From Candidatus Woesearchaeota archaeon (GTDB lineage Archaea > Nanobdellota > Nanobdellia > Woesearchaeales > GW2011-AR9), in assembly GCA_023265685.1 (NCBI GenBank), contig JAHFSP010000001.1, positions 54,975 to 118,974 on the forward strand: a DNA stretch of 64,000 bases, read 5' to 3'. The notes under the pieces were generated by a model, which had not been told where the DNA came from, made no database searches, and saw nothing but the letters and a program-made list of their open reading frames with translations. A program made the position numbers and the translations under genes. Position 1 is the stretch's first letter, and each line of letters begins with the position of its first letter. Positions 1,083-56,081 of the stretch are shown here, piece by piece.

Positions 1083-1246
1083 ATTTGACAGAGTGGGGAG
1101 TTACATTCTTTATATAGATTCTGTTCGAAATTGGACAGGCGAAGGGAGATAATTCTTCAATTGTTGGAGAAATAGAAAATAACGTTACGCACTACGTGCG
1201 AGATTTCTGAGACTGTTATTTTTTGATAGGCTTTGTCTATGGTGCT

Positions 1247-1921
1247 CTACTGAGCACGAGAAGACATGACTCGAGTAAAGGAACCGCCGCTGTCATTCCA
1301 GCCACCAATGAGGTTCGAGTCGCCATGACTCTTCACGAAGAGCGCCCTCGTTTCGCCAACGGGAAGATTGGGAACAAGATGCGTATTCATTGCTGTGTAA
1401 TTTGAACTTTGTCCTTCCCACTGGCGTTCAACGTATTGATCAAGTGTATTTCTTCCTGCAAATTGCCAGACTGGGTGGGCTTTTGCTTGAGCTTTTGTGA
1501 GGAGAGTGTTATATAACCCATCTGCCCCATTGAATTCTTGGACATTAATACCATCAGCAACGAGGGAATCGTACTCCACAATAATTAATGATGGACGTGC
1601 CCTTTCGTGTATGTGTAGTAACGCGTCAGAGATGAGGGAGATCTTGAAGAGACCGTTTGGTCCGTAGGTGATTGAGGAACAGCTGTCGTCCCATCTTGTG
1701 CCGAGGTCCCAGTTGTTGAGACGGGCGAGCATGATTTCTTCGACAGTGAGGGGACGATAGATCGCTTCACCGTCAAGAACGTGAGTAGGATGGAGAACGG
1801 ATAGTCCTGCTTGTTGGTCTTGGTAGCAAGCGGCTTGGAGAGAGTGGTAGCCTTGGGCCCAGGTTCTTGTTTGAGGCATGAGTTCGACTGATTTTCCAGT
1901 AAGATTTTCGAGAAGTGACAT
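1247..1921 (-). CDS. Paralog-family protein copy 1 (unknown function, 224 aa, no signal peptide)
   Basis: 224-aa ORF highly similar to the ORFs at 27520..28197 and 33230..33910. Shared motifs include WAQGYH, ITYGPNGLFKISL and AHPVWQFAG. The C-terminal ~30 aa are hypervariable. Confidence 0.8.
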   Translation of the reverse strand: MSLLENLTGKSVELMPQTRTWAQGYHSLQAACYQDQQAGLSVLHPTHVLDGEAIYRPLTVEEIMLARLNNWDLGTRWDDSCSSITYGPNGLFKISLISDALLHIHERARPSLIIVEYDSLVADGINVQEFNGADGLYNTLLTKAQAKAHPVWQFAGRNTLDQYVERQWEGQSSNYTAMNTHLVPNLPVGETRALFVKSHGDSNLIGGWNDSGGSFTRVMSSRAQ

Positions 1922-1947: not shown

Positions 1948-1957
1948 TTTTTATAAA
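1948..1957 (-). promoter_or_regulatory. TATA box (TTTTATAAA) ~27-36 nt upstream of the copy-1 start codon; conserved with copies 2 and 3
   Basis: The block tttataaa...tttgttgt...agttat recurs upstream of all three paralogs at the same spacing. The short distance to the start codon suggests a leaderless mRNA. Confidence 0.45.
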
Positions 1958-2155: not shown

Positions 2156-3661
2156 TTGATGAGCCTTTTGAACATATCTATTCTGAAAACAGATATTCTT
2201 TCGATGCGCGATTTTTCTCGTGAAGAGGTCGAAGAGATTATTCACAAAGCATTAGAATTAAAACGAACTAAAAAAACAAACACGCAAGACCTGAATTCTC
2301 TTAGTCATAATAAAATTCTTGCGTCATTATTTTTTGAGAATTCTACTCGTACACGAGAGAGTCATGAACTTGCGGCTACAAAGTTAGGTATGAACATTAT
2401 AGGGTTTGCGGGAACAGAAGGAACTTCTGTTAAGAAAGGCGAACCTTTGGCAGATACTGCACGTATGTATGCTGGTTTCGAGGCAGATGTGGTGGTCATG
2501 CGACATAATCTTGATGGGGCAGCACGCTTTGTTGCAGATGTGGTGAATGTTCCGGTGATTAACGCAGGTGATGGTGCGAATGCTCATCCAACTCAGACGC
2601 TGCTTGATCTGATGACGATTTTTGAGAAATTTGGGACGATTGATAATTTGAAAATTGCGATGGTGGGGGATCTCAAATATGGCCGCACAGTGCACTCTTT
2701 GTTGCAGGGATTGGCATTGTTTCGCAACGTAGAAATATGGGCTGTCGCACCCCCTGGTTTAGAAATGCCGGCTCATTGTATTGCTGAGTTTGAAGAGCGT
2801 ACTGGTACCAAAATTTTCTATACTCCTCATCTTCAAGAGGTATTGGATAAAGCCCAAGTGTTGTATATGACCAGAATTCAACGCGAACGTTTTCCAACTA
2901 GCGTAGAAGGAGAACATGAATTTAAGAAGGTGAGTGGGATGTATGAATTAACTTCTCAGGTACTCACACGAGCAAATCCTTCATTGTGTGTGATGCATCC
3001 ATTGCCACGCGTTAAACATAAACTTGAGATTAGTCTTGATGTTGATGCATCACCACGTGCATTATATTTTGAACAGGCTCGTAATGGAGTATTTATTCGA
3101 CAAATTTTGATTTCACACCTACTTGGAGTGCAGAAGACTAAAATTGAAAATAAAGAAGAAAATGGATTATGGCGGGAGCGATTTGTGAATGGACAAGATA
3201 AAAAAGAGAGTTATTTGTATCGGCTCGATAACGGCACGTTGATTGATCATCTTGAACCGGGAAAAGGCCCTCTCGTCCACTCTTTATTAGGATTAGAAAG
3301 ACTTCAAACTACAGTTGTTCAAGCTCTTAACATTGCAAGTACAAAATATGGGCGCAAAGATGTGTTAGCAATTCATAATATGCGCCTCACGCCACGTCAA
3401 TTATGGAAAATCGCTTTGGTAAGTGAACGTGCCTCAGTAAATTTTATTGAAGACAAACGAGTGGTTCAGAAGGGAACAGTGATATTGCCACGCGTACTTG
3501 AAAGACTGTTACTGTGCCAAAATGTAAATTGTGTGACTCGACCAGAACATTTTGAACATGCGCCAAGTAAATTTATTGTAGAACAAGATAAACCACTACG
3601 TTTGCGATGTTATTATTGTGAGCGGACATGTGGCCAGGAAGACGTGGAGTTGTTAAAGTAA
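2156..3661 (+). CDS. pyrBI: Aspartate carbamoyltransferase catalytic chain fused to regulatory chain (PyrB-PyrI fusion)
   Basis: The N-terminal ~300 aa carry ATCase motifs (STRTR, HPTQ, HPLP). The C-terminal ~160 aa carry a PyrI-like zinc domain (CxxxxC...CYYCERTC). The true start may be the internal Met at about 2204 (MRDFSREEVEEI). Confidence 0.85.
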   Translation: MMSLLNISILKTDILSMRDFSREEVEEIIHKALELKRTKKTNTQDLNSLSHNKILASLFFENSTRTRESHELAATKLGMNIIGFAGTEGTSVKKGEPLADTARMYAGFEADVVVMRHNLDGAARFVADVVNVPVINAGDGANAHPTQTLLDLMTIFEKFGTIDNLKIAMVGDLKYGRTVHSLLQGLALFRNVEIWAVAPPGLEMPAHCIAEFEERTGTKIFYTPHLQEVLDKAQVLYMTRIQRERFPTSVEGEHEFKKVSGMYELTSQVLTRANPSLCVMHPLPRVKHKLEISLDVDASPRALYFEQARNGVFIRQILISHLLGVQKTKIENKEENGLWRERFVNGQDKKESYLYRLDNGTLIDHLEPGKGPLVHSLLGLERLQTTVVQALNIASTKYGRKDVLAIHNMRLTPRQLWKIALVSERASVNFIEDKRVVQKGTVILPRVLERLLLCQNVNCVTRPEHFEHAPSKFIVEQDKPLRLRCYYCERTCGQEDVELLK

Positions 3662-11791: not shown

Positions 11792-12907
11792 CTAAATCTT
11801 TCGAGCCCACTCACACATTAATTTTGGGACGGCGAAGCGATCGGAAGATACACGAGATAAACCATAATAAACTATTGATTCCACATCACGACTGGTGTGA
11901 TAAATTAATGGCCAAATCGGCGATTGCTCGATTTGAGTCATGACTCGTTCTGGTAAATCAGAAGCGTTTTGGTTATAAGTTATTAAATCCTGGAAATGAT
12001 AATTGCAATTAAATGGATGATGCCCAATAATAGTTTCTGCTAGGATTATTGTTGACGCATAGATGTTTCCTGTTGGATCAAAACCACCACTAGCCTGTTG
12101 AAGAGACATATATACGGGAGTTCCAAAGATAATAGGTATATCGGAGATAGTACCTGCTTTAAGACGAGCATGAAGATCATTTATTCTAAAATATTCTGGG
12201 AGATGAGTACCAAGATCGATGCCTAATGAACAACCAGCGTCAACGACTGAAAGACTATTTTCTGTAATGATTATGTTTGATGGTTTAATGTCTCCGTGCT
12301 CAATATTATTTTTTACAAGATATTTTGATACGACGCCTAATCCGTAGGCTACTCTTTGAATGAGATTATGACGCAGATCATTGCGCAATTGATATTGGGG
12401 TGATTTTAATCTTGTTAGGATATATTCTAGCGTTTTACCTTTTATTTCTTGCATTTCTAGATAGGCTACAAGATTTCCTGTTTCGCTTAACGCAAGACCA
12501 TGATCATATAAATGAGGAAAATAGCGTGAACCAGTTATTCCCTCACTCTGGTCTTGAGAGATTTTTGCTAAAACTGCAATTTCGTTCGCAGCACCATGTA
12601 CTCTGATCCGAGTGGGAGAATCTAATTGGTACATCTCGTCCCCTACAAATACAATGCCCTCTCTGCTATCAATGTCAGATTCTGTATAGACCACGTTCAG
12701 AAATGGATTAGTGTTATCTGGTGTGAGTTTTCCAAGAGACCATATTTTGATTATTCGGTCTGGTCGAGCAGGGTCAATAACACGAGCAATACTTCCCTGC
12801 GTTCCACCTAAATTAGTGGGTTTAATTTGTAGTAAAATCTCTAAAGTGGGAGGACCAATAATCGTTGGTTCAAAAGGATCGAAAGGAGATTGAGTTTGAG
12901 TGGTCAT
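11792..12907 (-). CDS. Eukaryotic-like Ser/Thr protein kinase-like protein (DFG replaced by DAG; possibly a pseudokinase)
   Basis: Catalytic-loop motif HGDIKPSNII, VAIK-like RIIKIW, and APE-like GTPVYMS. DAG sits where DFG is expected. Confidence 0.6.
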   Translation of the reverse strand: MTTQTQSPFDPFEPTIIGPPTLEILLQIKPTNLGGTQGSIARVIDPARPDRIIKIWSLGKLTPDNTNPFLNVVYTESDIDSREGIVFVGDEMYQLDSPTRIRVHGAANEIAVLAKISQDQSEGITGSRYFPHLYDHGLALSETGNLVAYLEMQEIKGKTLEYILTRLKSPQYQLRNDLRHNLIQRVAYGLGVVSKYLVKNNIEHGDIKPSNIIITENSLSVVDAGCSLGIDLGTHLPEYFRINDLHARLKAGTISDIPIIFGTPVYMSLQQASGGFDPTGNIYASTIILAETIIGHHPFNCNYHFQDLITYNQNASDLPERVMTQIEQSPIWPLIYHTSRDVESIVYYGLSRVSSDRFAVPKLMCEWARKI

Positions 12908-12989
12908 GTTTAAATATTAATATTTTTAGATTGATTTTAATCGATAATTATTTTGATCTACATTTGAACCACTTTATTTTTTAGAGAAA

Positions 12990-14228
12990 TTATTTTTGCA
13001 AATCCATTCTCAAGTACATACCTACATCCACTACTAATCTGGAAGGAACAGGAGAACTGATAGGTGAATAGTTTCTAGGTGTGGGCGATGCTTCCATTGA
13101 AGTGAGTCCTCGACGAGCAGAAGTAAGCTGAGAACAGTACATATCTGGCACTTGTTGTAATCTTTCCGATAGGCCCATAATAACATTGTACAAATTATCT
13201 GGTAAACAACGTCGAGAAGGTTCTTTTACTAATGCACTCTGAAGAGGTTCTATGGCCGGACTGATGATCTGTTTTGCAACCGCTTGGTCTAATCCATACA
13301 CTTGAGCGCTTACTACAGGGAGTTCACGCACGAGCCGGTTCATCATAGGGTTGTTATAAAAAGCTAGTGCTTCGGATACTCTTTCACTTTCATTATAGGC
13401 TGTTTGGTTGGGTAATCGTCCGGCATCTCTGGCGAATGCTCTATTAAAATCAGTTTTTGTTAAAAGTCCATACACAATGGTCGCCATGCTATATACATCA
13501 CTTGCAGGACCAACGAGACGCGGATTATGAATCTGTTCTGGAGAAGCGTTCCCTATCGATCCTGTTGCTACATCGAGTAATGCACGTCGTTTGAAAAACT
13601 CCTCAACTGTGGGATCATACGTTCTAATTATTCCAAGAAGAGATGAACTTTGACCAGATGAACCTTGACCAATCAGAGCTAGTCCGAAATCACCAACAAC
13701 GGCACCGTTTTCATCAATGAAAATGTTTGGTTTCTTAAGATCACGATGTGTTACACCTGCGGTTGCAAGATACGGCAATACGCAAGCAGCTTGGGCAAGA
13801 TAGGTCATTGCTTGTTGCAGAGAAATTTCTCCCATCTTAAATTGGTTGTGGAGATTTTCTCCATGATATGGAAACTGGACTGCGAGAGCGGGACTTTCTC
13901 CTATGGCTATTTCTTCTATACCTTTTACTTTCACAATGCGAGGATGACCTAATGCTTGTCCTAAAACAGCCTCTGCTTTGAGTATAATATGATTAGAAGC
14001 CACTCTACCTACGGGAGGATTTTGAATTTTCACAACAAAACCATCTGATCCTTGGCGATACACTTGCCCTTCTCCTCCATACGCCAAGATATCTTGGGGG
14101 GTGTACTCTCTACCAAACGCAGTAAATGATACTCCCTGGGGCACTTGGGCATAGGGGTTGGATTGGCTAGGCAAACTCATTTTATTATAAAGTATATACT
14201 TAATACTTAAAATGCGGGGCGAGACCAT
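12990..14228 (-). CDS. Hanks-type Ser/Thr protein kinase
   Basis: Motifs YGGEGQVY (Gly loop), VVK, HRDLKKPN, DFG and DVYSMATIVYGLL. Confidence 0.8.
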   Translation of the reverse strand: MVSPRILSIKYILYNKMSLPSQSNPYAQVPQGVSFTAFGREYTPQDILAYGGEGQVYRQGSDGFVVKIQNPPVGRVASNHIILKAEAVLGQALGHPRIVKVKGIEEIAIGESPALAVQFPYHGENLHNQFKMGEISLQQAMTYLAQAACVLPYLATAGVTHRDLKKPNIFIDENGAVVGDFGLALIGQGSSGQSSSLLGIIRTYDPTVEEFFKRRALLDVATGSIGNASPEQIHNPRLVGPASDVYSMATIVYGLLTKTDFNRAFARDAGRLPNQTAYNESERVSEALAFYNNPMMNRLVRELPVVSAQVYGLDQAVAKQIISPAIEPLQSALVKEPSRRCLPDNLYNVIMGLSERLQQVPDMYCSQLTSARRGLTSMEASPTPRNYSPISSPVPSRLVVDVGMYLRMDLQK

Positions 14229-16414: not shown

Positions 16415-16566
16415 TTCTAGGGATTAAATTCAAAGATGAGGTTATAGAATAGCAGATAAACCAATAGTAGAAGCATGAGTAAGAAACAGAAACTAAAAGG
16501 AGTAACAAAGAATAATGTGAAAGATAATGTAAAAAAATAGAAACAAGTAAAAAATCAAAAACAAGT

Positions 16567-24349: not shown

Positions 24350-24905
24350 TGTGGGTCTAATACCCCGCAGCTTGCTGCGGTATCTTTAAAGCTCCCCACT
24401 CATTTTTTCTTTTATGCAAGTCCGTCACGCTAGTCATTGTACTTATCGTATTCGCTATCACATTGTTCTCGTCATAAAATATAGAAAGAATCTTCTCACT
24501 TCAGAAGTCTTTGACTTTCTGAAGTTCATTTGTAGAGGTATAGAACAACGGTATTACCTTTACTTTGATGCCATCGGAAGCGATGGCGATCATCTTCATA
24601 TAGTTGTTGAAGGAGCACCCCGTTATGCTCCTTCACGAATACTCCAAATTTGTAAAAGTATTCTTGCCATTCAAATTTTCAAGCAATTTCCAGAATTAAA
24701 AGAGGAACTCTGGGGTGGCGAATTCTGGAGTGATGGTGGACACATTGACACAGTTGGAGACGGGCATGGTTTAGAAGCAGTGAAAAAATATGTGAAGAAT
24801 CAGGGAGGAGATCCAGCTCAACTATCTCTTTATCAATTTGCCGAGGCGTAATACCCCGCAGCTTGCTGCGAAGCGACCGTAGGAAGCGGTGGGATAGCCT
24901 CGGCC
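24350..24905 (+). mobile_element. IS200/IS605-family insertion sequence (TnpA only) with subterminal hairpins
   Basis: A Y1/HUH transposase ORF is flanked by near-identical palindromic motifs taataccccgcagcttgctgcg at 24355-24376 and 24849-24870. A larger right-end stem (gccgaggcg...cgcctcggc, 24841-24901) is also present. Confidence 0.7.
24414..24851 (+). CDS. tnpA: IS200-type transposase TnpA (HUH Y1 transposase)
   Basis: YRIRYHIVLVIKYRKNLL, HUH motif DHLHIVVE, and C-terminal WGGEFWSDGGHIDTVG, all matching IS200 TnpA. Confidence 0.85.
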   Translation: MQVRHASHCTYRIRYHIVLVIKYRKNLLTSEVFDFLKFICRGIEQRYYLYFDAIGSDGDHLHIVVEGAPRYAPSRILQICKSILAIQIFKQFPELKEELWGGEFWSDGGHIDTVGDGHGLEAVKKYVKNQGGDPAQLSLYQFAEA

Positions 24906-26777: not shown

Positions 26778-27032
26778 CTAATAGACTCTTTCTCTGTTAT
26801 CAACTTTTACAACAACAATTCTTTTTTCTTCATGATTAACTCTGTAAAGAGCCCGATAATCGCCTATTCTAATCCTAAATGTTGGTTCACTATAACCCTG
26901 AACTCTCTTTGAATCATGTGGAACCGGATTAAGAGCTAATTCCCCTAGTTTGTTAACAATCCTATCAAAAAGAATCTTTTCACATTTCTTAAGAAACTTA
27001 TCGGCCTGTTTATCAAGCGTTACTTCGAACAT
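26778..27032 (-). CDS. relE: RelE/ParE-superfamily toxin (mRNA interferase)
   Basis: C-terminal RIRIGDYRALYRVNHEEKRIVVVKVDNRERVY is a classic RelE motif. 84 aa. Overlaps the upstream antitoxin ORF by 20 nt. Confidence 0.8.
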   Translation of the reverse strand: MFEVTLDKQADKFLKKCEKILFDRIVNKLGELALNPVPHDSKRVQGYSEPTFRIRIGDYRALYRVNHEEKRIVVVKVDNRERVY

Positions 27033-27213
27033 TCTTAAGTTCCTCTAAAGAAATCAGTTTTCCAGCTTTCTCGTTTACAATACTCTCATCAATAAGTTTT
27101 TTTTCTTCTGCTGTGAGGATCGTATCTACATCTATCATGTGGGCTTTAATGTAATGAAGTTCATCCTTGATGTTCTTGAGTTCATCCATGATTAGTTCAG
27201 TTTCTGTTGCCAT
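27013..27213 (-). CDS. Putative antitoxin of the RelE pair
   Basis: 66-aa acidic helical protein immediately upstream of and overlapping relE. Confidence 0.5.
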   Translation of the reverse strand: MATETELIMDELKNIKDELHYIKAHMIDVDTILTAEEKKLIDESIVNEKAGKLISLEELKNVRSNA

Positions 27214-27365: not shown

Positions 27366-27519
27366 TATGATTGCTCACTGTTTTCACAGCGTCTCAAGGT
27401 AGTTGTAGAATAATGGAAGAGGATAAATTATTTTTTGAGTATTGGAAAGTAGGGGAAAATGTTGCGCGCGAGAATCTGAAGAGTTGTCCACTTTTTTGAC
27501 AGGCTTCGCCTGTGGCGCT

Positions 27520-28197
27520 CTACTCAGCGCGGATAGACACGACCCGAGCAAAGGAACCGCAGTCGTAGAGGTCGTAATTACCACCGAGGCTCGAATCGTA
27601 TTGATCGTTCACGAAGAGCGCCCTCATTTCACCAACTTGAGGATTGGAAACAAGATGCGTATTCATTGCGGTGTAATTTGAATTTTGTCCTTCCCACTGG
27701 CGATCAACGTAGGGATCAAGTGCATTTCCTCCTGCAAATTGCCAGACTGGGTGGGCTTTTGCTTGAGACTTTGTGAGTGGAGTGTCGTATATCCCGTCTG
27801 CTCTGTTGAATTCTCTGACGTTGACATCGTCAGCGATGAGAGAATCATACTCCATACGAGTGGATGTTTGATTGAATTCTTGTGGTAGGCGTAGTAACGC
27901 ATCGGAGACAAGAGAGATTTTGAAGAGGCCGTTTGGCCCATAGGTGATTGCAGAACAGCTGTCATTCCATTTTTGACCGAGGTCCCAGTTGCCGATACGG
28001 GCGAGCATGTTTTCTTCGACGGTGAGAGGACGGTAGATTGTTTTGCCGTCAAGAACATGAGTAGGGTGTTGTACAGTTCTTCCTGCTTGTTCGTCGGCTT
28101 TGCAGACGTCTTGGAGAGCGTGATAGCCTTGGGCCCAGGTTTTGGTTTGTGGCATGAGCTGAACGGTTTGTCCAGTAAGTTTTTCGAGGAATGACAT
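27520..28197 (-). CDS. Paralog-family protein copy 2 (225 aa)
   Basis: Same family as 1247..1921 and 33230..33910. The 5' ~235 nt are near-identical to copy 3. Confidence 0.8.
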   Translation of the reverse strand: MSFLEKLTGQTVQLMPQTKTWAQGYHALQDVCKADEQAGRTVQHPTHVLDGKTIYRPLTVEENMLARIGNWDLGQKWNDSCSAITYGPNGLFKISLVSDALLRLPQEFNQTSTRMEYDSLIADDVNVREFNRADGIYDTPLTKSQAKAHPVWQFAGGNALDPYVDRQWEGQNSNYTAMNTHLVSNPQVGEMRALFVNDQYDSSLGGNYDLYDCGSFARVVSIRAE

Positions 28198-28221
28198 GTA
28201 GAGGGTTGTAACCGGAAAGTG

Positions 28222-28229
28222 TTTATAAA
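28222..28229 (-). promoter_or_regulatory. TATA box ~25 nt upstream of the copy-2 start
   Basis: tttataaa, with the same downstream tttgttgttactttaaagttat block as at copy 3. Confidence 0.45.
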
Positions 28230-28481
28230 TTTTATCTTTTTGTTGTTACTTTAAAGTTATTATTGTTATCTTGATTTGGTAGTCCCACTATTTGACCAAT
28301 ACAATATTGAATATTTGCCTTACATGACCCATCAGTAAAACTTTCTCACTATTTTCCATACCATCTTTGTTTTGTCACAGTTCTTACAAAAAGAAAACAA
28401 AATTTCTGAACGTCTCGTTTCTCACTAGCCACTGGTCAAGTCCGCAAAACTCTTTTAAAGCGTTCTTTCTATAATAGAGGG

Positions 28482-30722
28482 ATGCTGCAGAACTTTTCAC
28501 CTCGATTGTATCAGCAAACTATCCTTGCAAGTGCTGCAACGAAAAATACCTTGGTGGTTTTGCCTACAGGAATGGGAAAGACCGGTATTGCGTTGTTGCT
28601 GGCGGCTCAGCGATTGATTCAATATCCTCAATCTAAGATTCTTTTACTTGCACCAACCAAACCGCTTTGTGAACAACATGTGGAAACGTTTCGTAAACAT
28701 TTGACTGTAGATGCTGAGAAGATCGTGTTGTTTACTGGGAGTGTTACACCGGTTAAACGGGCGGCGTTATGGAAGACAGCAACGGTAATTGTAAGTACGC
28801 CCCAAGGTCTGGAGAATGATATTATTAATAGGCGTATTGACCTTAAAGAAGTAAGTGGATTGATTATTGATGAGGCACATCATGCGACGGGTGATTATCC
28901 TTACGTATGGTTAGCGGGACAGTATGAGAAAAATGCGCAATATGCTCGTATTTTGGCTTTAACGGCGTCTCCAGGAACTGATTTAGAAAGTATAAAAGAG
29001 CTGTGTAAAAATTTGTTTATTGAGAAGATTGAAGTACGTACACAAGAAGATCACGACGTTGCTCAATACGTTCAAGAAGTAGACATGAATTGGATAAGTG
29101 TGGAGTTTCCACCACAGCTCAAAGAAATTCAAACTCAATTGAATCTGTGTAAAACATCGAAACTAAGTGCAATTATGCAATTAGGATTGAGCAAGAGTTC
29201 TAAACTAGGCAAAGGAGAATTATTGGGATTACAACAAGAATTGCAAAGTAAGTTAGCGCAAGAAGGTACTGATTTTAACGTTTTTAAAGCGTTGTCATTG
29301 CTTGCTGAGGCACTTAAAATTGATCATGCGATAGAGTTATTAGAAACGCAAGGAGCGAGCCAAACGTGTAGGTATCTTGAGAAATTACAATCAGAAGCAC
29401 GAATCTCAAATACCAAAGCGGTGAAAAACCTTGTTGTTGATGAACATTTCAAAGCAGCATTATATCTAGCACAACAGCAAGTGGTTGAGGGAGTTCAACA
29501 TCCTAAAATGGTGAAATTGTTGGAGTTGTTGACTCAGACTATTGCAAAAGATATCACTGCAAAAGCAATTGTATTCACTCAGTTTCGTGATACAGGTGAG
29601 TTGATCGTTAAAGAATTGGAGAAAAACTCTATCTCAGGGCACATTTTCGTTGGACAGGCAAAGAAAAATGGGGTGGGTTTTTCTCAAAAAAAGCAAAAAG
29701 AAATTCTCGAGAAATTTAGGGATGGTGTTTTTTCTGTCTTGGTTGCGACGTCGGTTGCTGAAGAAGGACTTGATATTCCAAAAGTGGATGGGGTTATATT
29801 CTACGAGCCAATCCCAAGTGCGATTCGTTCCATTCAGCGTCGAGGACGTACCGGCCGTCTGGAAAAAGGAGAAGTCACGATTCTCATGACAAAGGGTACA
29901 CGAGATGAGGTGTATCGTTGGGCAGCACATCACAAAGAGAAACGGATGTATCGACATCTTGATGAATTACGTAAAAATATCGGGTTGATTTTACCAGAGA
30001 TAATTCTACCAAAGAAAGAAGCAAAAAATATTGAGAAACCATTAATGTCGTATACTACACCTGCTCTGAATGTAATACCTAAAGTGGTAATTCTGGCTGA
30101 TCATCGTGAAAAGAGTAATCGAGTAGTGAAAGAGTTGATCGACCTTAACGTTCATGTGACTCTTGAACAGCTCGATCATGCTGATTATCTACTTTCAGGT
30201 CGCGTGGCAGTTGAATTAAAACAAGTTCCTGATTTTGTTGCATCACTCATCGATGGACGAATCTTAGATCAGTTACGTGATTTAAAAAGATTGTTTGAGC
30301 GTGCAGTATTAATTATTGAGGGCGATGAAGATATTTATAGCGTGCGTAACGTTCACCCAAATGCGTTAAGAGGATTACTTGCAACCATTGTCTTGGATTA
30401 TGGTATCCCCATTTTATATACACGAAGTGCAAAAGAAACTGCGGCATTACTCGCAGTGATGGCAAAACGAGAACAAGAAAAGGATACTGATTTTTCTGTG
30501 CATTCTTTAAAGCCAAAAACTCTTTCTCAACAGCAGGAATATGTCGTAGCGGCATTGCCAGGAATTGGAATTCAGACCGCACGCGTGTTGTTGTTACATT
30601 TTAGATCTGTGGAAAGAGTAATGAGTGCAACGAAGAAAGAGTTGATGGAAGTGGAAGGCGTTGGTGTGAAAATCGCGGAGAGGATCAAAGAATTAGTTGA
30701 GAAAAAGTATGATGCCAAATAA
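28482..30722 (+). CDS. hef: Hef helicase-nuclease (FANCM/XPF-like: SF2 helicase + ERCC4 nuclease + HhH2)
   Basis: PTGMGKTGIA, DEAHHATG, helicase C motifs (QRRGRTGR), a C-terminal ERCC4 nuclease (ILADHREKSN...), and a terminal HhH. 746 aa. Confidence 0.85.
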   Translation: MLQNFSPRLYQQTILASAATKNTLVVLPTGMGKTGIALLLAAQRLIQYPQSKILLLAPTKPLCEQHVETFRKHLTVDAEKIVLFTGSVTPVKRAALWKTATVIVSTPQGLENDIINRRIDLKEVSGLIIDEAHHATGDYPYVWLAGQYEKNAQYARILALTASPGTDLESIKELCKNLFIEKIEVRTQEDHDVAQYVQEVDMNWISVEFPPQLKEIQTQLNLCKTSKLSAIMQLGLSKSSKLGKGELLGLQQELQSKLAQEGTDFNVFKALSLLAEALKIDHAIELLETQGASQTCRYLEKLQSEARISNTKAVKNLVVDEHFKAALYLAQQQVVEGVQHPKMVKLLELLTQTIAKDITAKAIVFTQFRDTGELIVKELEKNSISGHIFVGQAKKNGVGFSQKKQKEILEKFRDGVFSVLVATSVAEEGLDIPKVDGVIFYEPIPSAIRSIQRRGRTGRLEKGEVTILMTKGTRDEVYRWAAHHKEKRMYRHLDELRKNIGLILPEIILPKKEAKNIEKPLMSYTTPALNVIPKVVILADHREKSNRVVKELIDLNVHVTLEQLDHADYLLSGRVAVELKQVPDFVASLIDGRILDQLRDLKRLFERAVLIIEGDEDIYSVRNVHPNALRGLLATIVLDYGIPILYTRSAKETAALLAVMAKREQEKDTDFSVHSLKPKTLSQQQEYVVAALPGIGIQTARVLLLHFRSVERVMSATKKELMEVEGVGVKIAERIKELVEKKYDAK

Positions 30723-30798
30723 TTTTGGAGGGCATTAGTTTTTAGTAGTAACTTGTTAGGAGTAAATTTTATAAAAGAGGGATGATTTTAGACTTCTT

Positions 30799-31320
30799 GT
30801 GGAAACTACTCAGATTATCTATAAAAAAGCACCAACAGTTCAAGGGTTAATTACAGATTTACGTCCCCATCTTACAGATGCTATTGGATCTATTGCGAGA
30901 GGTGAATCGCTTGAAATAACTCTCGCATTTGAACCTGAATCTTGGGAAGAATTTTTGAGAACAAGTGATTATGCTTATGAAAGACGTGCGAGATTAGGTG
31001 ACTCTCATCTTGGTAGAGAAGGTCAAGAGATGTTAGAGGCTGCAATTAAATATAGTCTCCTACTAGATAGCAGAAATCTTAGAGTTGAAATTCAACTATT
31101 TTATCCCCAAAGCATTGCACAATTACAAACATGTGGCCCTGCTATCTACCAGAATGCCGTTGCTCAAACAGGTCAACTACCTTTTCCATTTTTTGATGAG
31201 ATTGATTTTAGTGAGCTTATACGGGAAGAGAAACTGGGTAAAAAAGAACATCGCGAGATACATGTTACATTTAGTAAAGCAGAATCAATGGATACGGTTA
31301 ATCGCTATTATCAAGATTAA
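30799..31320 (+). CDS. Hypothetical protein
   Basis: 173-aa ORF, no motif recognised. Confidence 0.4.
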   Translation: METTQIIYKKAPTVQGLITDLRPHLTDAIGSIARGESLEITLAFEPESWEEFLRTSDYAYERRARLGDSHLGREGQEMLEAAIKYSLLLDSRNLRVEIQLFYPQSIAQLQTCGPAIYQNAVAQTGQLPFPFFDEIDFSELIREEKLGKKEHREIHVTFSKAESMDTVNRYYQD

Positions 31321-31343
31321 TGTAGATTAATGTATAACTCATT

Positions 31344-32084
31344 TCATTTCTTAGACATCTTTCCAGTCTGCCAGTCACGCAGAATAAGTCTACTGGTTGA
31401 TTCGAGATCGGGTTGGCCACCTTTTTGGAGACGTTTGATTTTATAGCCAACCTGTTCGAGTATGTCTTGACTATTTTTGCCGCTGACTTGGTAATAGTCA
31501 CAGATTAATTGCTTTTTCTCTTTGATGAGACCGATGGCGGCGGCTTCAGGGTCTTTGATTTTGGCATAATCGATTGCACCAGTTTTACCGTGTTTAATGT
31601 CAGCATTGCCTTTTTCTTTGAGAGGAAAGACACCAGGAGTATCGAGAAGAACAATTTTTCTATCAACACGAATTTTTTGTAAGCCTTTGGTGAACCCACT
31701 CTCAGAAGACGTTCTTGCCGCACCGCGTCCTGCTAGTGCATTGATTAATGATGATTTTCCTACGTTAGGATATCCCACGATTCCTACCACAACATTTTCT
31801 CCATGCGAAAGTGCGAGAATTTTTTTCTTAAGCAGAGTTGTTCCAAGGTGTTCACGACTTGAAATGAAGATAGATGGTCGTAAATCCTTGCGGTCTTTTT
31901 TAAGCTGATCAATTTCCACTAAGTCACACTTTGTGATGACATAGAGAAGTTTTTTCCCTGATTGAAGAACTTTTCGTTCGATTTCCGGATGTCGAGTATC
32001 TTCAATGGAACGCGCATCAAGCACTTCGATGATAATATCAGATTGTTCCAAGACGCGATTGACATGTCGCCAGAATGAGGGCAT
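31344..32084 (-). CDS. Circularly permuted GTPase (YlqF/YawG family, ribosome-biogenesis type)
   Basis: G4 (TKCDL) precedes G1 (GYPNVGKSS) and G3 (DTPG), the hallmark permuted order. Confidence 0.7.
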   Translation of the reverse strand: MPSFWRHVNRVLEQSDIIIEVLDARSIEDTRHPEIERKVLQSGKKLLYVITKCDLVEIDQLKKDRKDLRPSIFISSREHLGTTLLKKKILALSHGENVVVGIVGYPNVGKSSLINALAGRGAARTSSESGFTKGLQKIRVDRKIVLLDTPGVFPLKEKGNADIKHGKTGAIDYAKIKDPEAAAIGLIKEKKQLICDYYQVSGKNSQDILEQVGYKIKRLQKGGQPDLESTSRLILRDWQTGKMSKK

Positions 32085-32151
32085 GGGAAGAGATGGGTGA
32101 GCGGTGTTTATAAAAGTCGCTGAAGAGAAGTTAAAAATTATGCATTTAAAA

Positions 32152-32538
32152 TCACGCTGCCAACGCTTCTTGGTTTTTAATCTCTTGTTCTACTGATTTG
32201 TATAATTCATGAATCTTACGGATAATTTCTGGTTTCTGTTTTTTCTGAGATAGGCCAATATAGGCTTTGAGTAATTTGATTTCTTGGAGTTCGCGTTGCA
32301 TGATTTCGAGAAATTTTTTCTTTCTTTCTGCAGAAAGATTTCGTGCAATAACATTTTCTGCCAAAACACTTTTTTCCAGACGACTTAGATATTCGTTAAT
32401 GCTATTTGCTAATTTGATTGTGTCCTTATCTTTTTCTCCTACTTCGTTGAGAACAAACAGCAAGTCTTCAATTTGTGTGGCAATAACAGCATACACTTTC
32501 CTGATTTTTTCCACGTATAATTGTACTGCTTCTGCCAT
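32152..32538 (-). CDS. Hypothetical coiled-coil protein
   Basis: 128 aa, heptad-rich, no known motif. Confidence 0.35.
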   Translation of the reverse strand: MAEAVQLYVEKIRKVYAVIATQIEDLLFVLNEVGEKDKDTIKLANSINEYLSRLEKSVLAENVIARNLSAERKKKFLEIMQRELQEIKLLKAYIGLSQKKQKPEIIRKIHELYKSVEQEIKNQEALAA

Positions 32539-32539
32539 T

Positions 32540-33133
32540 TTATTTCTCTTTACCTAAGATGTCAGCAGTACTTGCACCTAAGACTGCGAGAAGTTCATTT
32601 GTTGCAATAAGACGATATATCTGTGGAAGAGGAGTGGTAAAGTCTATGAAGCCAAAGACAAAGAGAGTTACTACGATGACTCCTGTTGAAATCAGGAAAA
32701 TGGTAGCAACTCGCAAAGGGATAAACCGGAATATTTTGATTTCTTTGACTTTGCGAAATCCTGAATAATACATGAAGAAGAATGCGACCACTAACGAGAG
32801 AACATAGAGGGTTGTGGCACGATTAACAGATACCCTGTCAGCGATCTCAACGCCATAAAAAAATGCGAAGTGACCAACTGTCCCGATTAATGCACCAATG
32901 GTACTTCGGGTGATGTCGGAACGAGTGATTTTCGTTAATGGATGACTGCTTTTCTCATTTTCAATTTCTTTTTTTATGGTCTCGAGTTCTTGGATTTCTT
33001 GAAGCTGGAGTCGTTCGACGTTTTCTTCTTCTATGAGGAGATCTTTTGGGGTTGGTCTTATTGAAGACAGTCTCGATTTTGGGAATTTAGAACTAGATGA
33101 TTGGGTCTTGGATGGTTTGCGTTTCTTTGCCAC
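32540..33133 (-). CDS. Hypothetical membrane protein
   Basis: 197 aa. Basic N-terminus, acidic coiled region, and several C-terminal TM helices. Confidence 0.45.
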   Translation of the reverse strand: MAKKRKPSKTQSSSSKFPKSRLSSIRPTPKDLLIEEENVERLQLQEIQELETIKKEIENEKSSHPLTKITRSDITRSTIGALIGTVGHFAFFYGVEIADRVSVNRATTLYVLSLVVAFFFMYYSGFRKVKEIKIFRFIPLRVATIFLISTGVIVVTLFVFGFIDFTTPLPQIYRLIATNELLAVLGASTADILGKEK

Positions 33134-33229
33134 GAAGGTAACGAAAGAAAAAGAGAATATAAGTCTTTCGAGTTGAGTGATTATTATGTTATTTTTAGAG
33201 TCTTAGAGAGAAGTCAAGCTTGTGAGATA

Positions 33230-33910
33230 CTAGCGAGCGCGGATGGGCACGACCCGAGCAAAGGAACCGTTGACGTAGGGGTCATAATTCTTACAACCAA
33301 AGTTCGAGCTGTTATGATTGCCCACGCAGAGCGCTCTCGTTTCACCAACTTGAGGATTGGAAAAAAGACATGTGCCCATTGCTGCGTAATCTGAATTTTT
33401 TCCTTGCCACTGGCGTTCAACGTATTGATCAAGTGCATTTCCTGCTGCGAATTGCCAGACTGGATGGGCTTTTGCTTGGGACTTTGTGAGTGGAGTGTCG
33501 TATATCCCGTCTGCTCTGTTGAATTCTCTGACATTGACACCATCAGCGACGAGAGAATCATACCCTATATTGAGAGATAGTTTATTGAAGTCTCGGGGTA
33601 GACGCAGAAGAGCATCAGAGATGAGAGAGATTTTGATACGACCGTTGGGTCCATAGGTGATTGCAGAACAGCTGTCATTCCATTTTTGACCGAGGTCCCA
33701 GTTGCCGATACGGGCGAGCATGTTTTCTTCGACGGTGAGAGGACGGTAGATTGTTTTGCCGTCAAGAACATGAGTAGGGTGTTGTACAGTTCTTCCTGCT
33801 TGTTCGTCGGCTTTGCAGACGTCTTGGAGAGCGTGATAGCCTTGGGCCCAGGTTTTGGTTTGTGGCATGAGCTGAACGGTTTGTCGAGTAAGTGTTTCGA
33901 GAAGTGACAT
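33230..33910 (-). CDS. Paralog-family protein copy 3 (226 aa)
   Basis: Same family as copies 1 and 2. N-terminal half is near-identical to copy 2 at the nucleotide level. Confidence 0.8.
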   Translation of the reverse strand: MSLLETLTRQTVQLMPQTKTWAQGYHALQDVCKADEQAGRTVQHPTHVLDGKTIYRPLTVEENMLARIGNWDLGQKWNDSCSAITYGPNGRIKISLISDALLRLPRDFNKLSLNIGYDSLVADGVNVREFNRADGIYDTPLTKSQAKAHPVWQFAAGNALDQYVERQWQGKNSDYAAMGTCLFSNPQVGETRALCVGNHNSSNFGCKNYDPYVNGSFARVVPIRAR

Positions 33911-33935: not shown

Positions 33936-33944
33936 TTTATAAAT
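33936..33944 (-). promoter_or_regulatory. TATA box ~26 nt upstream of the copy-3 start
   Basis: tttataaat followed by gtttcttttgttgttacttttaagttat, conserved with copy 2. Confidence 0.45.
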
Positions 33945-40991: not shown

Positions 40992-41103
40992 GCGGATCCG
41001 ATGGGATTTGAACCCACGATCTACAGCTATCGTCGTGAGATGAACTCTACAGCTCTGATCTCAGGTAGAAGGCTGTCGCGCTATCCAGGCTACGCTACGG
41101 ATC
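40992..41103 (-). tRNA. tRNA-Arg (anticodon UCU) with a 37-nt intron at the canonical 37/38 position
   Basis: Hand-folded. Acceptor ggatccg/cggatcc, U8A9, D-arm gcgt-agccuggaua-gcgc, anticodon stem acagc/gctgt, loop cuUCUa, T-arm gtggg-TTCAAAT-cccat. No encoded CCA. T-run follows the 3' end. Confidence 0.8.
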
Positions 41104-41158
41104 CACAAAAGCTTCTTCGTCAGATAACTTTTAAATATTTCGTCTATAAAAATGGTGT

Positions 41159-49346: not shown

Positions 49347-49427
49347 GATTGAGTTTTTAATTTTATTTTTTCTGTTTTCTTTTTATCAATTAAGTTAGAT
49401 TGTTTGCTGAACATTGGTTTTATATAA

Positions 49428-51239: not shown

Positions 51240-53054
51240 GTGTTTACAAAAGAGATAATAGTTATTTTAAAGAATCGCTCAAATAAGACTACTATGAATC
51301 AATTCCTTCCTGTCTCTCTTTTTGAGGGCAAACAGCACTACTCTGATTTCACGCAGTTTGATGTCGTGTTTGTGACAGGTGATCCTTATTATGATCATCC
51401 GCTTAGTGGGATGTCGATTATTGCTCGGCTATTAGATGCGAAAGGGTACAAAGTAGGTATTATCCAGCAGCCAGAAACGGATGAAGAATTTATGAAATGT
51501 GGGCAGCCAAAATATTTCTTTTGTATTACGAGCGGTCTTCTGGATTCGATGCTGGCTAATTATACTCCGATGTTGCATAAGCGGGAAAATGTACTTGTTC
51601 CTGAGAGGGCATTAATTACGTATACACAAAAAATTAAAACGCTCTTTAAAGGTTCGATTACGGTTTTGGGAGGTGTGGAAGCTACGATTCGTCGGTTTAC
51701 TCATTTTGATTACAAAGAGAACGGATTGCGTCGAGGAATATTACATGATAGCAAAGCAGACTTGATAATTTTTGCAAACGCTGAACGGGCAATTTTGACG
51801 TTATTAGAAAGAATGAACACAGAAATAAGAAAAGTTAATGGAGAGAGAAGAGAGTTCTCACAGATTCGGTCCGGGCTAGATCTTTTTTCCATCGATGGAG
51901 TGTCGTTTCGGATTAAGAAAGATGAAATTAAACCAGATATTCGTATTTTACCTAGTTTTGAGCAGTGTGTCGAGAACAAAGAAGAATTTAGTTTGCTTAC
52001 TCGATTGCATTATTTACTTCCGGATGCGCCATTTATTGAACCAACTGGTGCTGGTTTTATCCGACATAATCGTCCTGAACATACTCTCACCCAAGAAGAG
52101 ATGGATCTGATTTATGAATTGCCGTTTGTGCGTGAGATTCATCCAGCAGCTAAGAACCGTGATTTTAACGTGCAGATGGTTGAGAAGCTTGCCGCGTCGG
52201 TGATTATTGGCCGAGGATGCTGGGGAAGTTGTAATTTTTGTGTGATTCCGTTGGTACAAGGTAAAGAAGTTGCCAAACGCAGTAAAGAAGGAATAGTTCG
52301 AGAGATTGAATCACTTTATGCTAAAGGGGTGCGTAAGGTCAATGATCTTACCCTACCAACACTTAATATGTATGGATCATATTGTGATCTCTATAAACAC
52401 CCTAAAGAAATTTATTCGCCTGTAATTAGGAAGATGATAACAGTGTACAACAAGAAAGAGTATTGTAACCAAGAGTGCGTTGGTTGTTCTCATCGTCAGA
52501 TTAGTGATGATTTAATGCCAATTTTAGAAGCTGTGGAGAAGCTTAACATGAAGTATCAGGGAACTACGATGGAGTTGCGTTCTGCCCTACGACATGATAT
52601 TATCTTGGATCAGAAGAAACTTTTTCGTAAAATTATGCAGTTTACGACTCGTCTTAAAATTGCTCCTGAACATATTTCGGATAAAGTGTTGGCATCGATG
52701 AACAAAGCAACACGTAAAGAGTTTGAATTATTTTTGGAAGAGTTTGAGAAAGTGAACAAGGAACAGGGTACGCGGAAAAGATTGGTACCTTATTTTGTCG
52801 CAGCACATCCTGGCTCGACGCAAGAAGACATGGATGAGTTGAAACGGTTTTGTGAGGATAAGAAACTGTTTGTGAATTTAACTCAAGTCTTTACGCCTAC
52901 ACCTGGCACGGCTTCAACTGCAACATATTATACTGGAATTGAGACACGAAATAAAAAAAATGTGTACGTTCCTCGAGCGTTTCGTGAGAAGAAAGATCAA
53001 AAATATACATTAATGAGGAAGGAAGAGCAGGATGTAAGTGATGAGAGTGGATGA
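51240..53054 (+). CDS. Radical SAM protein, YgiQ/UPF0313 family
   Basis: CWGSCNFC (C-x3-C-x2-C) in a YgiQ-like context. 604 aa. Likely start at the internal Met (~51294). Confidence 0.7.
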   Translation: MFTKEIIVILKNRSNKTTMNQFLPVSLFEGKQHYSDFTQFDVVFVTGDPYYDHPLSGMSIIARLLDAKGYKVGIIQQPETDEEFMKCGQPKYFFCITSGLLDSMLANYTPMLHKRENVLVPERALITYTQKIKTLFKGSITVLGGVEATIRRFTHFDYKENGLRRGILHDSKADLIIFANAERAILTLLERMNTEIRKVNGERREFSQIRSGLDLFSIDGVSFRIKKDEIKPDIRILPSFEQCVENKEEFSLLTRLHYLLPDAPFIEPTGAGFIRHNRPEHTLTQEEMDLIYELPFVREIHPAAKNRDFNVQMVEKLAASVIIGRGCWGSCNFCVIPLVQGKEVAKRSKEGIVREIESLYAKGVRKVNDLTLPTLNMYGSYCDLYKHPKEIYSPVIRKMITVYNKKEYCNQECVGCSHRQISDDLMPILEAVEKLNMKYQGTTMELRSALRHDIILDQKKLFRKIMQFTTRLKIAPEHISDKVLASMNKATRKEFELFLEEFEKVNKEQGTRKRLVPYFVAAHPGSTQEDMDELKRFCEDKKLFVNLTQVFTPTPGTASTATYYTGIETRNKKNVYVPRAFREKKDQKYTLMRKEEQDVSDESG

Positions 53055-53264
53055 GTATCTTGTTTTTATATATTACTCACTGGGTTTAGTAAACGAAGGG
53101 TTTGTTTTCCCTTCAGTACAGAAAACGAATAGATTTTAGCTTTCATGTACTCTGTAGCTCTGCGCAGAAATGAGTTCATTTCATGCACCAGTAGTGATCT
53201 GCATTCATTGACTCTCCGTCGTATTTCTTGTGTTGTGGTTTCTTACTTCTTCAAACAATTCTTT

Positions 53265-53663
53265 CTACTCATACGTCTCAGGATCAAACGATGAAATCAA
53301 AAAAATAGTAAATCCTAGTTGAAATAGTGCTGAAACAATACTTATTATCGTAATAATAAAAACCATCTGTGCAGTCATCATATTAAGAATTCCCAACGTG
53401 ATCCCCAAAATAAAAAAAAGCAAACTACTAATAACGCCATACACCGGCAACACAAACAAAACTCGCGGTGCTTGCCACTTCACATAAAAGATAAACGTTA
53501 CCAAATGGTAAAAGAAAAAGAACAGCAATGCTCCTGCCGCAACACTTGCAAGTAAACTTACCCGCTTTCCCAACAACAATAAAATATCATTACTCAGACT
53601 CAAAAGAACAAACCCGATCATCAATAGAATGTACATCTGAAGGTAACCACGATTAAGAGCCAT
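53265..53663 (-). CDS. Hypothetical membrane protein
   Basis: 132 aa with four TM helices. Confidence 0.4.
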   Translation of the reverse strand: MALNRGYLQMYILLMIGFVLLSLSNDILLLLGKRVSLLASVAAGALLFFFFYHLVTFIFYVKWQAPRVLFVLPVYGVISSLLFFILGITLGILNMMTAQMVFIITIISIVSALFQLGFTIFLISSFDPETYE

Positions 53664-53826
53664 ACCAGTAGAATAGTTGTTTTGTTATATATTGTTTACG
53701 GATTCGTCGGTTTATTTACCCATCTACAACCCCAATCTACAACCCTAAAAACGTTCTCAGAACCTCCAAGCAGACCTCTCAATTGGCTAGAAATCTTTAT
53801 AAATAACCTCTTTTTCAAGCTTTTGT

Positions 53827-54357
53827 ATGGTACGCTTACGTAAATTTTCCGCATATCAAAACCTAGAACGCCCGTATACTCGGATTAGTAAGTATACCAA
53901 GAAAAATTACGTTCGTGGTGGTTTCCCTAACCTTAAAATTACTAAATTTGATATGGGAAGTCCTTCAAGAACCTACGATACAACTATTCGTCTCTGCGTA
54001 ACACTGGACATGAACATCCGTCAAAACGCTCTTGAGGCAGCTCGTCAAACATCTAATCGGGTATTAGAAAAAGCTATCGGAAAAGATTATCACCTTCGTC
54101 TCAAACTCTATCCTTTTCATGTTCTTCGTGAAAACCCTCTTGCATCAGGTGCAGGAGCAGATCGTACTAGTACAGGTATGCAGAAAGCATATGGGAAACC
54201 TATTGGGTCTGCTGCACGTGTCCATGCTGGTCAAACTGTTTTTGAACTACGATTAGCAAAAGCAAATATTACTACTGGTCGCCTTGCTATGGAAAGAGCA
54301 TCAAAGAAACTTCCTTGCCACTGCAAAATTCAAGTCATTGAACCTGCAGTAGTATAA
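53827..54357 (+). CDS. rpl10e: Ribosomal protein L10e (uL16)
   Basis: MVRLRKFSAYQNLERPYTRISKYTKKNYVRGGFP is a classic L10e N-terminus. 176 aa. Confidence 0.9.
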   Translation: MVRLRKFSAYQNLERPYTRISKYTKKNYVRGGFPNLKITKFDMGSPSRTYDTTIRLCVTLDMNIRQNALEAARQTSNRVLEKAIGKDYHLRLKLYPFHVLRENPLASGAGADRTSTGMQKAYGKPIGSAARVHAGQTVFELRLAKANITTGRLAMERASKKLPCHCKIQVIEPAVV

Positions 54358-54508
54358 ATTCTGCTTTTTCTTACGTTATCATTCGTTCTCTTTGTGTAAA
54401 TTTCAGTTCCCTCTCTTCATTCTTATTCCTTCTTATACTTTCTTAACTCTATAAAAATCAAAAGAAATCAAAAACAAATCCATCACCATTAAAGATATAC
54501 TACTAAAA

Positions 54509-54901: not shown

Positions 54902-54943
54902 ACCTATTAACCTACTATTAACCTATTCTGGGTCAAACCTATC

Positions 54944-55975: not shown

Positions 55976-56081
55976 AGTAGCAAAGAAGCAAGGCGCTTAT
56001 ATTAAGGTTTGTGCCTCATTTAGATAAATTCAACAAAGCAAAATTAAACCTCAAAATTGAACGTAAAGAGGAAGTCTCCTT

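Follow-up and report, generated by a model that had tools for sequence, protein, structure and literature searches.

The stretch of DNA analyzed here, termed the window, covers 64,000 nucleotides (nt) of contig JAHFSP010000001.1 (positions 54,975 to 118,974, forward strand) in the assembly of a Candidatus Woesearchaeota archaeon (GenBank GCA_023265685.1). Three paralogous genes on its minus strand, termed copies 1, 2, and 3, encode proteins of about 225 amino acids (aa). Copies 2 and 3 share a 235-nt tract of perfect identity, which is very likely the footprint of a recent, non-crossover ectopic gene conversion between them, within a mosaic family of lectin-fold proteins apparently derived from targets of diversity-generating retroelements (DGRs). 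The genes and the TATA-like boxes in front of them are located as follows.

1247..1921, minus strand: copy 1 gene, 224 aa, a paralog with 68% aa identity to copy 2, identical in three European Nucleotide Archive (ENA) contigs.
27520..28197, minus strand: copy 2 gene, an open reading frame (ORF) of 225 aa with a predicted C-type-lectin fold, AvpA-like.
33230..33910, minus strand: copy 3 gene, 226 aa, a paralog with 82% aa identity to copy 2.
1950-1957, minus strand: TTTATAAA TATA-like box of copy 1, 28 nt upstream of the ATG.
28222..28229, minus strand: TTTATAAA TATA-like box of copy 2, 24 nt upstream of the ATG.
33936-33943, minus strand: TTTATAAA TATA-like box of copy 3, 25 nt upstream of the ATG.

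Each of the three copies is an intact full-length ORF with its own TATA-like box, and the upstream region is conserved across all three. Copies 2 and 3 are direct repeats that lie 5.7 kb apart and flank the gene for Hef together with four other genes, one of which encodes a GTPase. A 225-aa ORF just past the right edge of the window was also considered, and it is not a fourth paralog.

Extension of exact matches shows that the identity between copies 2 and 3 is a single unbroken run of 235 nt, with an offset of 5713 between the two loci. This run and the second-longest one between the same copies are placed as follows.

27938..28172, minus strand: identical tract in copy 2, nt 26-260 of the coding sequence (CDS), codons 9-87, defined by exact-run extension; independent contigs end at 28032 and 28078.
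33651..33885, minus strand: identical tract in copy 3, CDS nt 26-260, defined by exact-run extension; MEGAHIT contig L010 ends at 33791 and others at ~33745.
27767..27819, minus strand: second-longest exact run between copies 2 and 3, with its 53 nt matching 33480-33532; the end of Logan contig L011 (k=31) lies 30 nt inside the run.

The tract thus forms the 5′ part of both minus-strand genes, and in copy 2 it is bounded by first mismatches at 27937 and 28173. The original prediction, made from the letters of the sequence, had reported an identity of about 235 nt in the 5′ coding part of copies 2 and 3, and it was right about the length, the location within the genes, and the strings it quoted. 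Its coordinates (27951-28184 and 33663-33896) point to the same tract but are shifted by about 12-13 nt, and they imply an offset of 5712 instead of 5713.

Divergence along the genes is far from uniform. Of the 443 aligned sites outside the tract, 80 (18%) distinguish copy 2 from copy 3 (82% identity), while inside it the two agree at 235 of 235. Copy 1 differs from both at 49 of the 235 sites inside the tract (21%), in keeping with the earlier statement that it differs throughout. At 18% divergence, the chance of 235 straight identities is (1-0.18)^235, or about 5e-21. When the 192 variable sites were permuted in the manner of GENECONV, none of 100,000 shuffles matched the concordant run of 49 sites, and the longest run they gave was 28 (p<1e-5). 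After the tract, the longest stretches of exact identity between any two copies measure 53, 38, and 29 nt, with the run of 38 nt belonging to copies 1 and 2.

The tract is internal, with diverged homologous sequence of copies 2 and 3 on both of its sides. On the 5′ side, 4 positions in CDS nt 1-25 are mismatched, and identity in the promoter region is about 75%. On the 3′ side the divergence is 18%, which agrees with the prediction that the downstream halves have diverged. Synonymous divergence (dS, estimated by the Nei-Gojobori method) between copies 2 and 3 falls to 0.02 at codons 9-87, a span that takes in the two boundary mismatches, and it is zero inside the exact run. Outside the tract it is 0.34, with 0.47 at codons 88-150 and 0.24 from codon 151 to the end. 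Between copies 1 and 2, dS inside the tract is 0.63. Since the tract has a dS of about zero for one pair of copies but 0.63 for another, it is neither a mutational cold spot nor an element constrained at the nucleotide level.

The original prediction had also allowed for a recent duplication. In this account, copy 2 or copy 3 arose recently from the other, the 5′ part is still undiverged, and the 3′ part was split quickly by hypermutation, for example by a DGR. Such a history would suit the alignment of the C-terminal tails to DGR variable regions (VRs; described below) and the ratio of nonsynonymous to synonymous divergence (dN/dS), which is about 1 from codon 151 to the end compared to about 0.27 upstream. 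However, the mismatches and promoter divergence on the 5′ side of the tract do not fit an undiverged 5′ part, and the sequence beyond the genes is unrelated between copies 2 and 3. Divergence also begins 330 nt upstream of the VR-like core, whereas DGR mutagenesis alters only the positions of adenines in the template repeat (TR), within about 100 nt. The differences 3′ of the tract are old ordinary substitutions (60-66% transitions across the comparisons, and 64% in this one), with many synonymous changes (dS 0.47 at codons 88-150) and no adenine bias. A recent duplication is therefore very improbable.

Another concern is that the window belongs to a metagenome-assembled contig (131,250 bp), and repeats longer than the k-mer are hard to assemble. 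An assembler might have merged similar but non-identical segments at the two loci of the metagenome-assembled genome (MAG), or copied one of them over the other. Independent assemblies of the same organism, from several ENA (MEGAHIT, k=141) and Logan (k=31) data sets, argue against this. MEGAHIT contig L010, recorded for 3 samples, equals window positions 28032-33791 with 100% identity, and its two ends lie exactly 141 nt inside the copy 2 tract and exactly 141 nt inside the copy 3 tract. One further MEGAHIT contig ends at 28078, which is 27938+140, and two more end at about 33745, which is 33885-140 as judged from the contig extent and a partial gene of 55 codons. The ends of Logan contigs lie 30 nt inside three repeats: the 235-nt tract, the 53-nt run of copies 2 and 3, and the 38-nt run of copies 1 and 2. 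Across MEGAHIT and Logan assemblies of several samples, both flanks are thus recovered at 100% identity, with ends k or k-1 nt inside the repeats. This is how de Bruijn graphs behave at true exact repeats, so the tract is not an assembly artefact; such an origin is extremely improbable. The sole Eulerian path through this graph, X-R-Y-R-Z, would be the arrangement seen in the window.

At a separate place in the window, two independent MEGAHIT contigs meet, one with its end at about 24829 and the other with its start at about 24689, as computed from the contig extents. The resulting 141-nt overlap (24689-24829) implies another branch point of the graph, which could be a repeat or a strain-variable junction.

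The most probable account of the tract is that at least 235 bp of copy 2 or copy 3 (codons 9-87) were recently overwritten by the sequence of the other copy. This presumably occurred by homologous recombination of the RecA/RadA type with a non-crossover resolution. Had these direct repeats crossed over, the 5.7-kb interval between copies 2 and 3 would have been deleted, but it is intact, with Hef, a GTPase, and three other ORFs retained. The upper 95% bound on divergence of the tract is about 3 in 235, which means that the conversion would have at most about one-fourteenth of the age of the divergence of copies 2 and 3 elsewhere in the gene.

A second view of the copy 2 locus comes from another sample. 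Among 5.8 billion proteins, the only close relative of the three proteins besides themselves is P0003, a protein of 227 aa with 76% aa identity to copy 2. It is encoded, in a near-identical strain that co-occurs with that of the window, at the copy 2 position, between Hef and a ParE toxin pair, and its neighbors (proteins of 66 and 207 aa) are 100% identical to those of the window. The DNA of this allele was compared over its 3′ 516 nt, taken from Logan contig L013 (1-1139). It differs from copy 2 at 111 nt (~22%), all between alignment positions 31 and 472, and there are 0 differences in the following 667 nt, which comprise the last 44 nt of the gene, a hairpin, the spacer, and the next gene. 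The allelic divergence therefore has a sharp 3′ boundary at the junction of the VR and strand beta5, with 44 nt left up to and including the stop codon. In the window itself, the ParE-toxin gene (84 aa) and an overlapping 66-aa partner lie at 26778-27213 on the minus strand, directly downstream of copy 2, and the same pair flanks P0003.

The P0003 allele is not part of the identity between copies 2 and 3. In the 94 nt of the tract that are visible it has 12 differing sites, all within the last 64 nt, and its protein has six aa differences from copy 3 within the tract region, where copy 2 has none. The MEGAHIT contig that carries P0003 also passes unbroken through the 5′ part of the gene. Together these observations indicate that the 235-nt homogenization is specific to the lineage of the window.

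The P0003 protein also bears on the idea that extreme purifying selection on the nucleotides of the tract, imposed by an RNA or DNA element within it or by a gene that overlaps it, has kept copies 2 and 3 identical in place of recombination. The N-terminal half is indeed better conserved at the protein level, as P0003 is 91-92% identical to copies 2 and 3 in this half and 64-66% identical in the rest. However, nucleotide constraint of this kind would have to spare both copy 1, which differs at 49 of the 235 nt with a dS of about 0.6, and the P0003 allele with its 12 sites. The antisense ORFs of 73 aa are merely mirror images of the tract, and a search against Rfam finds no RNA family in it. 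Selection at this level is thus hardly credible as the cause of the identity.

Beyond the tract, the informative sites alternate along the gene between blocks in which copies 2 and 3 agree and blocks in which copies 1 and 2 agree, as read from the string of site patterns. There is a block of 49 sites shared by copies 2 and 3, which is the tract, another of 13 sites shared by copies 2 and 3 at about CDS 385-440, and a region at about CDS 445-560 dominated by agreement of copies 1 and 2. The last of these is placed as follows.

27638..27753, minus strand: segment of copy 2 that groups with copy 1 (1362-1477), CDS ~445-560, run p=0.0056, from a four-sequence comparison.

Over CDS 445-560, P0003 groups with copy 3, and copy 2 groups with copy 1. 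This pattern is suggestive of a second exchange, between copies 1 and 2. The differences outside the tail are transition-rich (60-66%) without adenine bias, a spectrum that points to old ordinary divergence brought in by recombination and not to hypermutation. The family as a whole appears to be a mosaic that arose through repeated exchanges, with the resemblance of copy 2 to copy 1 at CDS nt 445-560 and the divergent P0003 allele as the parts of this history that are visible. The original prediction had read the patchwork of identities as recombination or gene conversion between dispersed paralogs. The internal position of the patch, the collapse of dS, and the segments with other nearest relatives all bear this out.

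The exchanges need not all have taken place within one genome. The tract and the P0003 allele could have been imported from other strains or species, by allelic exchange or horizontal gene transfer. Two alleles about 22% apart at the copy 2 locus, in strains with flanks identical over 667 nt, are what such import would produce. Moreover, the P0003 segment at alignment columns 241-280 is unlike all three copies in the window, so the P0003 allele requires a donor outside these three copies. For the tract, however, a perfect donor lies 5.7 kb away in the same genome and is the most economical source, and exact-pattern searches of viral and Joint Genome Institute (JGI) metagenome collections found no other sequence that carries it. 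Import is therefore unlikely as the common explanation, though with some real weight, and gene conversion between copies 2 and 3 is preferred for the tract.

The three proteins have no match in Pfam, NCBIfam, or PHROG. A profile built from them and P0003 finds 228 distant representatives, in which the domain is usually C-terminal in a longer protein. A homolog search with a full-length alignment of 59 sequences returned 7 proteins only and was dominated by kinase and long-protein candidates; an alignment trimmed to the domain performed better. Three distant family members in other genomes are fused to a protein kinase (Pkinase) domain, a hint that some members of the family may act as intracellular sensors. 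No signal peptide or surface localization is evident for the three proteins of the window, which look cytoplasmic. The window also contains two adjacent Ser/Thr protein kinase genes, at 11792-14228 on the minus strand.

An AlphaFold model (AlphaFold 2, from an alignment of 39 sequences) has a pLDDT of 88.5 and a pTM of 0.87. A model from the 4 close sequences alone had a pLDDT of 37 and was not used. In a Foldseek comparison, the sole significant match of the first model in the PDB is 5ioo_A, AvpA (E 1.3e-7, probability 1.00, TM 0.61/0.65), and there is no significant match in the BFVD library of viral structures. AvpA is a variable protein with a C-type-lectin fold from a DGR of Nanoarchaeota (PMC5006420). 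The predicted fold allows the three “hypothetical” genes to be placed among DGR variable proteins, in the AvpA-type lectin-fold family. In the model, the 235-nt tract covers the N-terminal scaffold (beta1, alpha1, beta2-3, alpha2, and the next strand), and the predicted binding-site end lies outside it. Conversion would thus homogenize the scaffold, while the predicted ligand-binding tails stay distinct.

The tails contain a segment that resembles the VR of DGR targets, and in copy 2 it is followed by a small hairpin.

1286..1333, minus strand: VR-like core of copy 1, aa 197-212.
27559..27609, minus strand: VR-like core of copy 2, aa 197-213, NDQYDSSLGGNYDLYDC, between RALFV and GSFARV; aligns to the VR of proven DGR targets.
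33269..33322, minus strand: VR-like core of copy 3, aa 197-214.
27499..27513, minus strand: hairpin ACAGGC-GAA-GCCTGT of copy 2, 6 nt past the stop codon, with a 6-bp stem and a GRA-type trinucleotide loop.

Comparison by hhalign to a Pacearchaeota-type subfamily gives a probability of 98% (E 2.7e-13), and the tails align to the VR of this subfamily. In 17 of 46 metagenomic JGI loci of that subfamily, a template repeat with adenine-only mismatches lies 430-1600 nt downstream. Within the subfamily to which the window proteins belong, P0154 and P0125 each have a TR/VR pair with adenine-only differences; it lies about 330 nt downstream, and an RVT_1 reverse transcriptase (RT) comes after it. The P0154 template encodes LRALFVNNSNNNSNANGNNNLNNRASFLR, which aligns with residues 191-219 of the window proteins (e.g., MRALFVNDQYDSSLGGNYDLYDCGSFAR in copy 2). 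In view of these alignments to the VRs of P0154, P0125, and the Pacearchaeota-type subfamily, the variable tails are regarded as homologous to DGR variable regions. The high dN/dS from codon 151 onward is consistent with this homology, as are the variable codons of the tail, which are of a type derived from AAY (AAC, GAT, TAC, AGC, GGC, TGC, etc.) and stand among invariant TCG, CTC, and GGT TCC TTT. The original prediction had proposed that the same recombination could shuffle the variable tails. Movement of segments by recombination is upheld, but the variability of the tails probably has its origin in mutagenic retrohoming.

For P0125, the NCBI MAG record (L094, 9620-11038) has the TR and no called gene in the 1.4 kb after the target, while a Logan assembly with the same protein (L095, 3320-4369) has both the TR and the RVT_1 reverse transcriptase there. 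A more distant Woesearchaeota relative, L004, has a VR and a downstream repeat that differ by at least 10 mismatches, all at adenines of the repeat and none elsewhere. At L004 10360-12152, one nucleotide of the TR is missing from the VR, a 1-nt deletion that truncates the target ORF before its conserved C-terminal extension, and a downstream ORF of 408 aa is RT-like in its first ~90 residues only, with no Pfam match. This DGR looks damaged, with a degenerate RT-like ORF.

Hairpins with a GRA loop occur in DGR targets of Nanoarchaeota (PMC4372165). The hairpin of copy 2 is a weak signal, with a folding z-score of only -1.6. Its counterpart in copy 1 (1226-1240, minus strand, ATAGAC-AAA-GCCTAT) has one compensatory change from C-G to T-A plus one mismatch, and it is degenerate and does not fold. 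No hairpin is present 3′ of copy 3. Many of the differences between copies 1 and 2 in the 3′ hairpin stretch are G in copy 2 and A in copy 1.

Several points weigh against the reading of a recent conversion within a lectin-fold family derived from DGR targets. The donor is indistinguishable from the recipient, as the tract is identical in both copies and there is no outgroup allele of copy 3, and an intragenomic conversion would look the same as an import of this segment out of a different cell in the population. The second exchange, between copies 1 and 2, depends on a run of 7 sites (p=0.0056) and four sequences. Of the 39 rows in the alignment used for AlphaFold, 30 are from one subfamily, and AvpA itself was not found in profile searches against PDB sequences and is found by fold comparison alone. 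An adenine-tolerant scan of both strands of the 64-kb window and ~15 kb of flanks found no template repeat for any tail, and no reverse transcriptase was found in the same region among ORFs with a YxDD motif, in Pfam scans of the larger ORFs, or in the gene tables of the flanks. The three tails differ by indels and third-position C/T changes, which go beyond what a single TR can produce. Finally, the tails of copies 1 and 3 do not vary between independent assemblies; from one sample to the next, the assembled sequence of copy 1, and that of copy 3 in its 3′ part, is 100% identical.

The flanks used in these scans were recovered from other assemblies. The matches of the template scan were self-matches, the paralogs, and A-rich noise only. 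A-rich template candidates from short-window scans (e.g., 49349-49391 and 16520-16565) are false positives, and the sole ORF in the window with a YxDD motif encodes an NFACT protein, not an RT. Between the two alleles of the copy 2 locus, differences extend over the whole gene, show the spectra of ordinary substitution, and are not confined to adenine-templated positions.

With no TR or RT in this region of the genome, the tails behave as orphan, fossil, or remotely served targets. The three paralogs are most likely orphan or fossil DGR targets in this region, although a DGR elsewhere in the genome could still serve them remotely. Orphan targets and AvpA homologues without a DGR have already been reported in Nanoarchaeota and Woesearchaeota (PMC5006420, PMC4372165). 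The tails would probably have been diversified first by adenine-specific mutagenic retrohoming, and they may now evolve by point substitution and segmental recombination.

A broader proposal is that these DGR-descended paralogs, with their retroelement lost or remote, are now diversified by gene conversion, with segments frequently exchanged between paralogs and between alleles. We regard this as a long shot. If it is true, segmental conversion would be a recombination-based substitute for mutagenic retrohoming and would create strongly divergent alleles in otherwise identical strains. In a more speculative variant, the exchanges would be RT-mediated “retro-conversions,” templated by the mRNA of a paralog and primed at an end resembling a site at which mutagenic homing is initiated (IMH). 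This variant is suggested by the sharp 3′ boundary of the P0003 divergence at the VR/beta5 junction.

The tract is a textbook footprint of ectopic gene conversion, and it provides a clean, independently corroborated example from DPANN archaea, in which recombination dynamics are, to our knowledge, hardly documented. The larger gain is in annotation, as three genes without Pfam matches are placed in the AvpA-type lectin-fold family. In this family, a TR accompanies some members (with the RT gene adjacent in two cases), and others, these three included, lack both in their vicinity. An allele that is 22% divergent with identical flanks, together with the mosaicism among paralogs, suggests that ligand-binding diversity in the family is kept by more than one mechanism.

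The remaining content of the window is archaeal, with genes for the Hef nuclease (28482-30722), topoisomerase VI, and elongation factor 2 (EF-2), the last of which shares a 90%-identity cluster with a protein labelled “Candidatus Woesearchaeota archaeon.” The TTTATAAA boxes in front of the three paralogs also fit an archaeal origin. A tRNA at 40993-41104 on the minus strand has an Rfam match that spans 112 nt for a model of 71 positions, so an intron is presumably present. No tRNA is called anywhere in the window by ARAGORN in bacterial mode. Both results are in keeping with an archaeal genome. Adjoining copy 1, pyrB and pyrI (the catalytic and regulatory subunits of aspartate carbamoyltransferase) are fused in one ORF of 501 aa at 2156-3661 on the plus strand. 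GC skew is positive over the first ~52 kb and strongly negative after ~54 kb, with a cumulative maximum near 54 kb. This turn (~52000-56000) may mark the origin or terminus of replication, or a place where gene orientation switches.

Segmental gene conversion is well known from cassette-based antigenic and phase variation, as in Neisseria pilE/pilS, Borrelia vlsE, and Treponema tprK. As in these systems, segments are exchanged here between paralogs, and alleles of one locus differ strongly between otherwise identical strains. Unlike in these systems, there is no set of silent cassettes with a single expression site, and neither a signal peptide nor surface localization is evident. Antigenic variation of the cassette type is ruled out here, as all three copies are intact ORFs with their own promoter-like boxes.

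Compared to the AvpA-type proteins of Nanoarchaeota, Pacearchaeota, and Woesearchaeota DGRs, the window proteins have a predicted fold that matches 5ioo and a C-terminal variable segment between a conserved “RA(L/W)xV” and the “(S/R)F” beta5 strand, and copy 2 has a GRA-loop hairpin just 3′ of the gene (a weak signal). They differ from AvpA-type proteins in having no sequence-level match to AvpA and no 46-residue extension after the VR. In addition, no TR or RT is found in the window and ~15 kb of flanks, and the tails differ by indels and non-adenine changes.

The closest parallel to the tract itself is ectopic gene conversion in prokaryotic multigene families, which includes the concerted evolution of tuf or rRNA genes and mosaic families of surface proteins. 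The shared features are a short internal tract of perfect identity between dispersed, otherwise diverged paralogs, a non-crossover outcome with 5.7 kb left intact, and a mosaic phylogenetic signal. The present case differs in that it concerns a DPANN archaeon and a family related to DGR targets, in that the gene is only partly homogenized and its ligand-binding end stays divergent, and in that a highly divergent allele coexists at one locus. Ectopic conversion between paralogs is well known, and DGR-less AvpA homologues in Woesearchaeota have already been reported. What is modestly new is the combination of segment-exchanging, DGR-target-like lectin-fold paralogs with a deeply divergent allele set between identical flanks.

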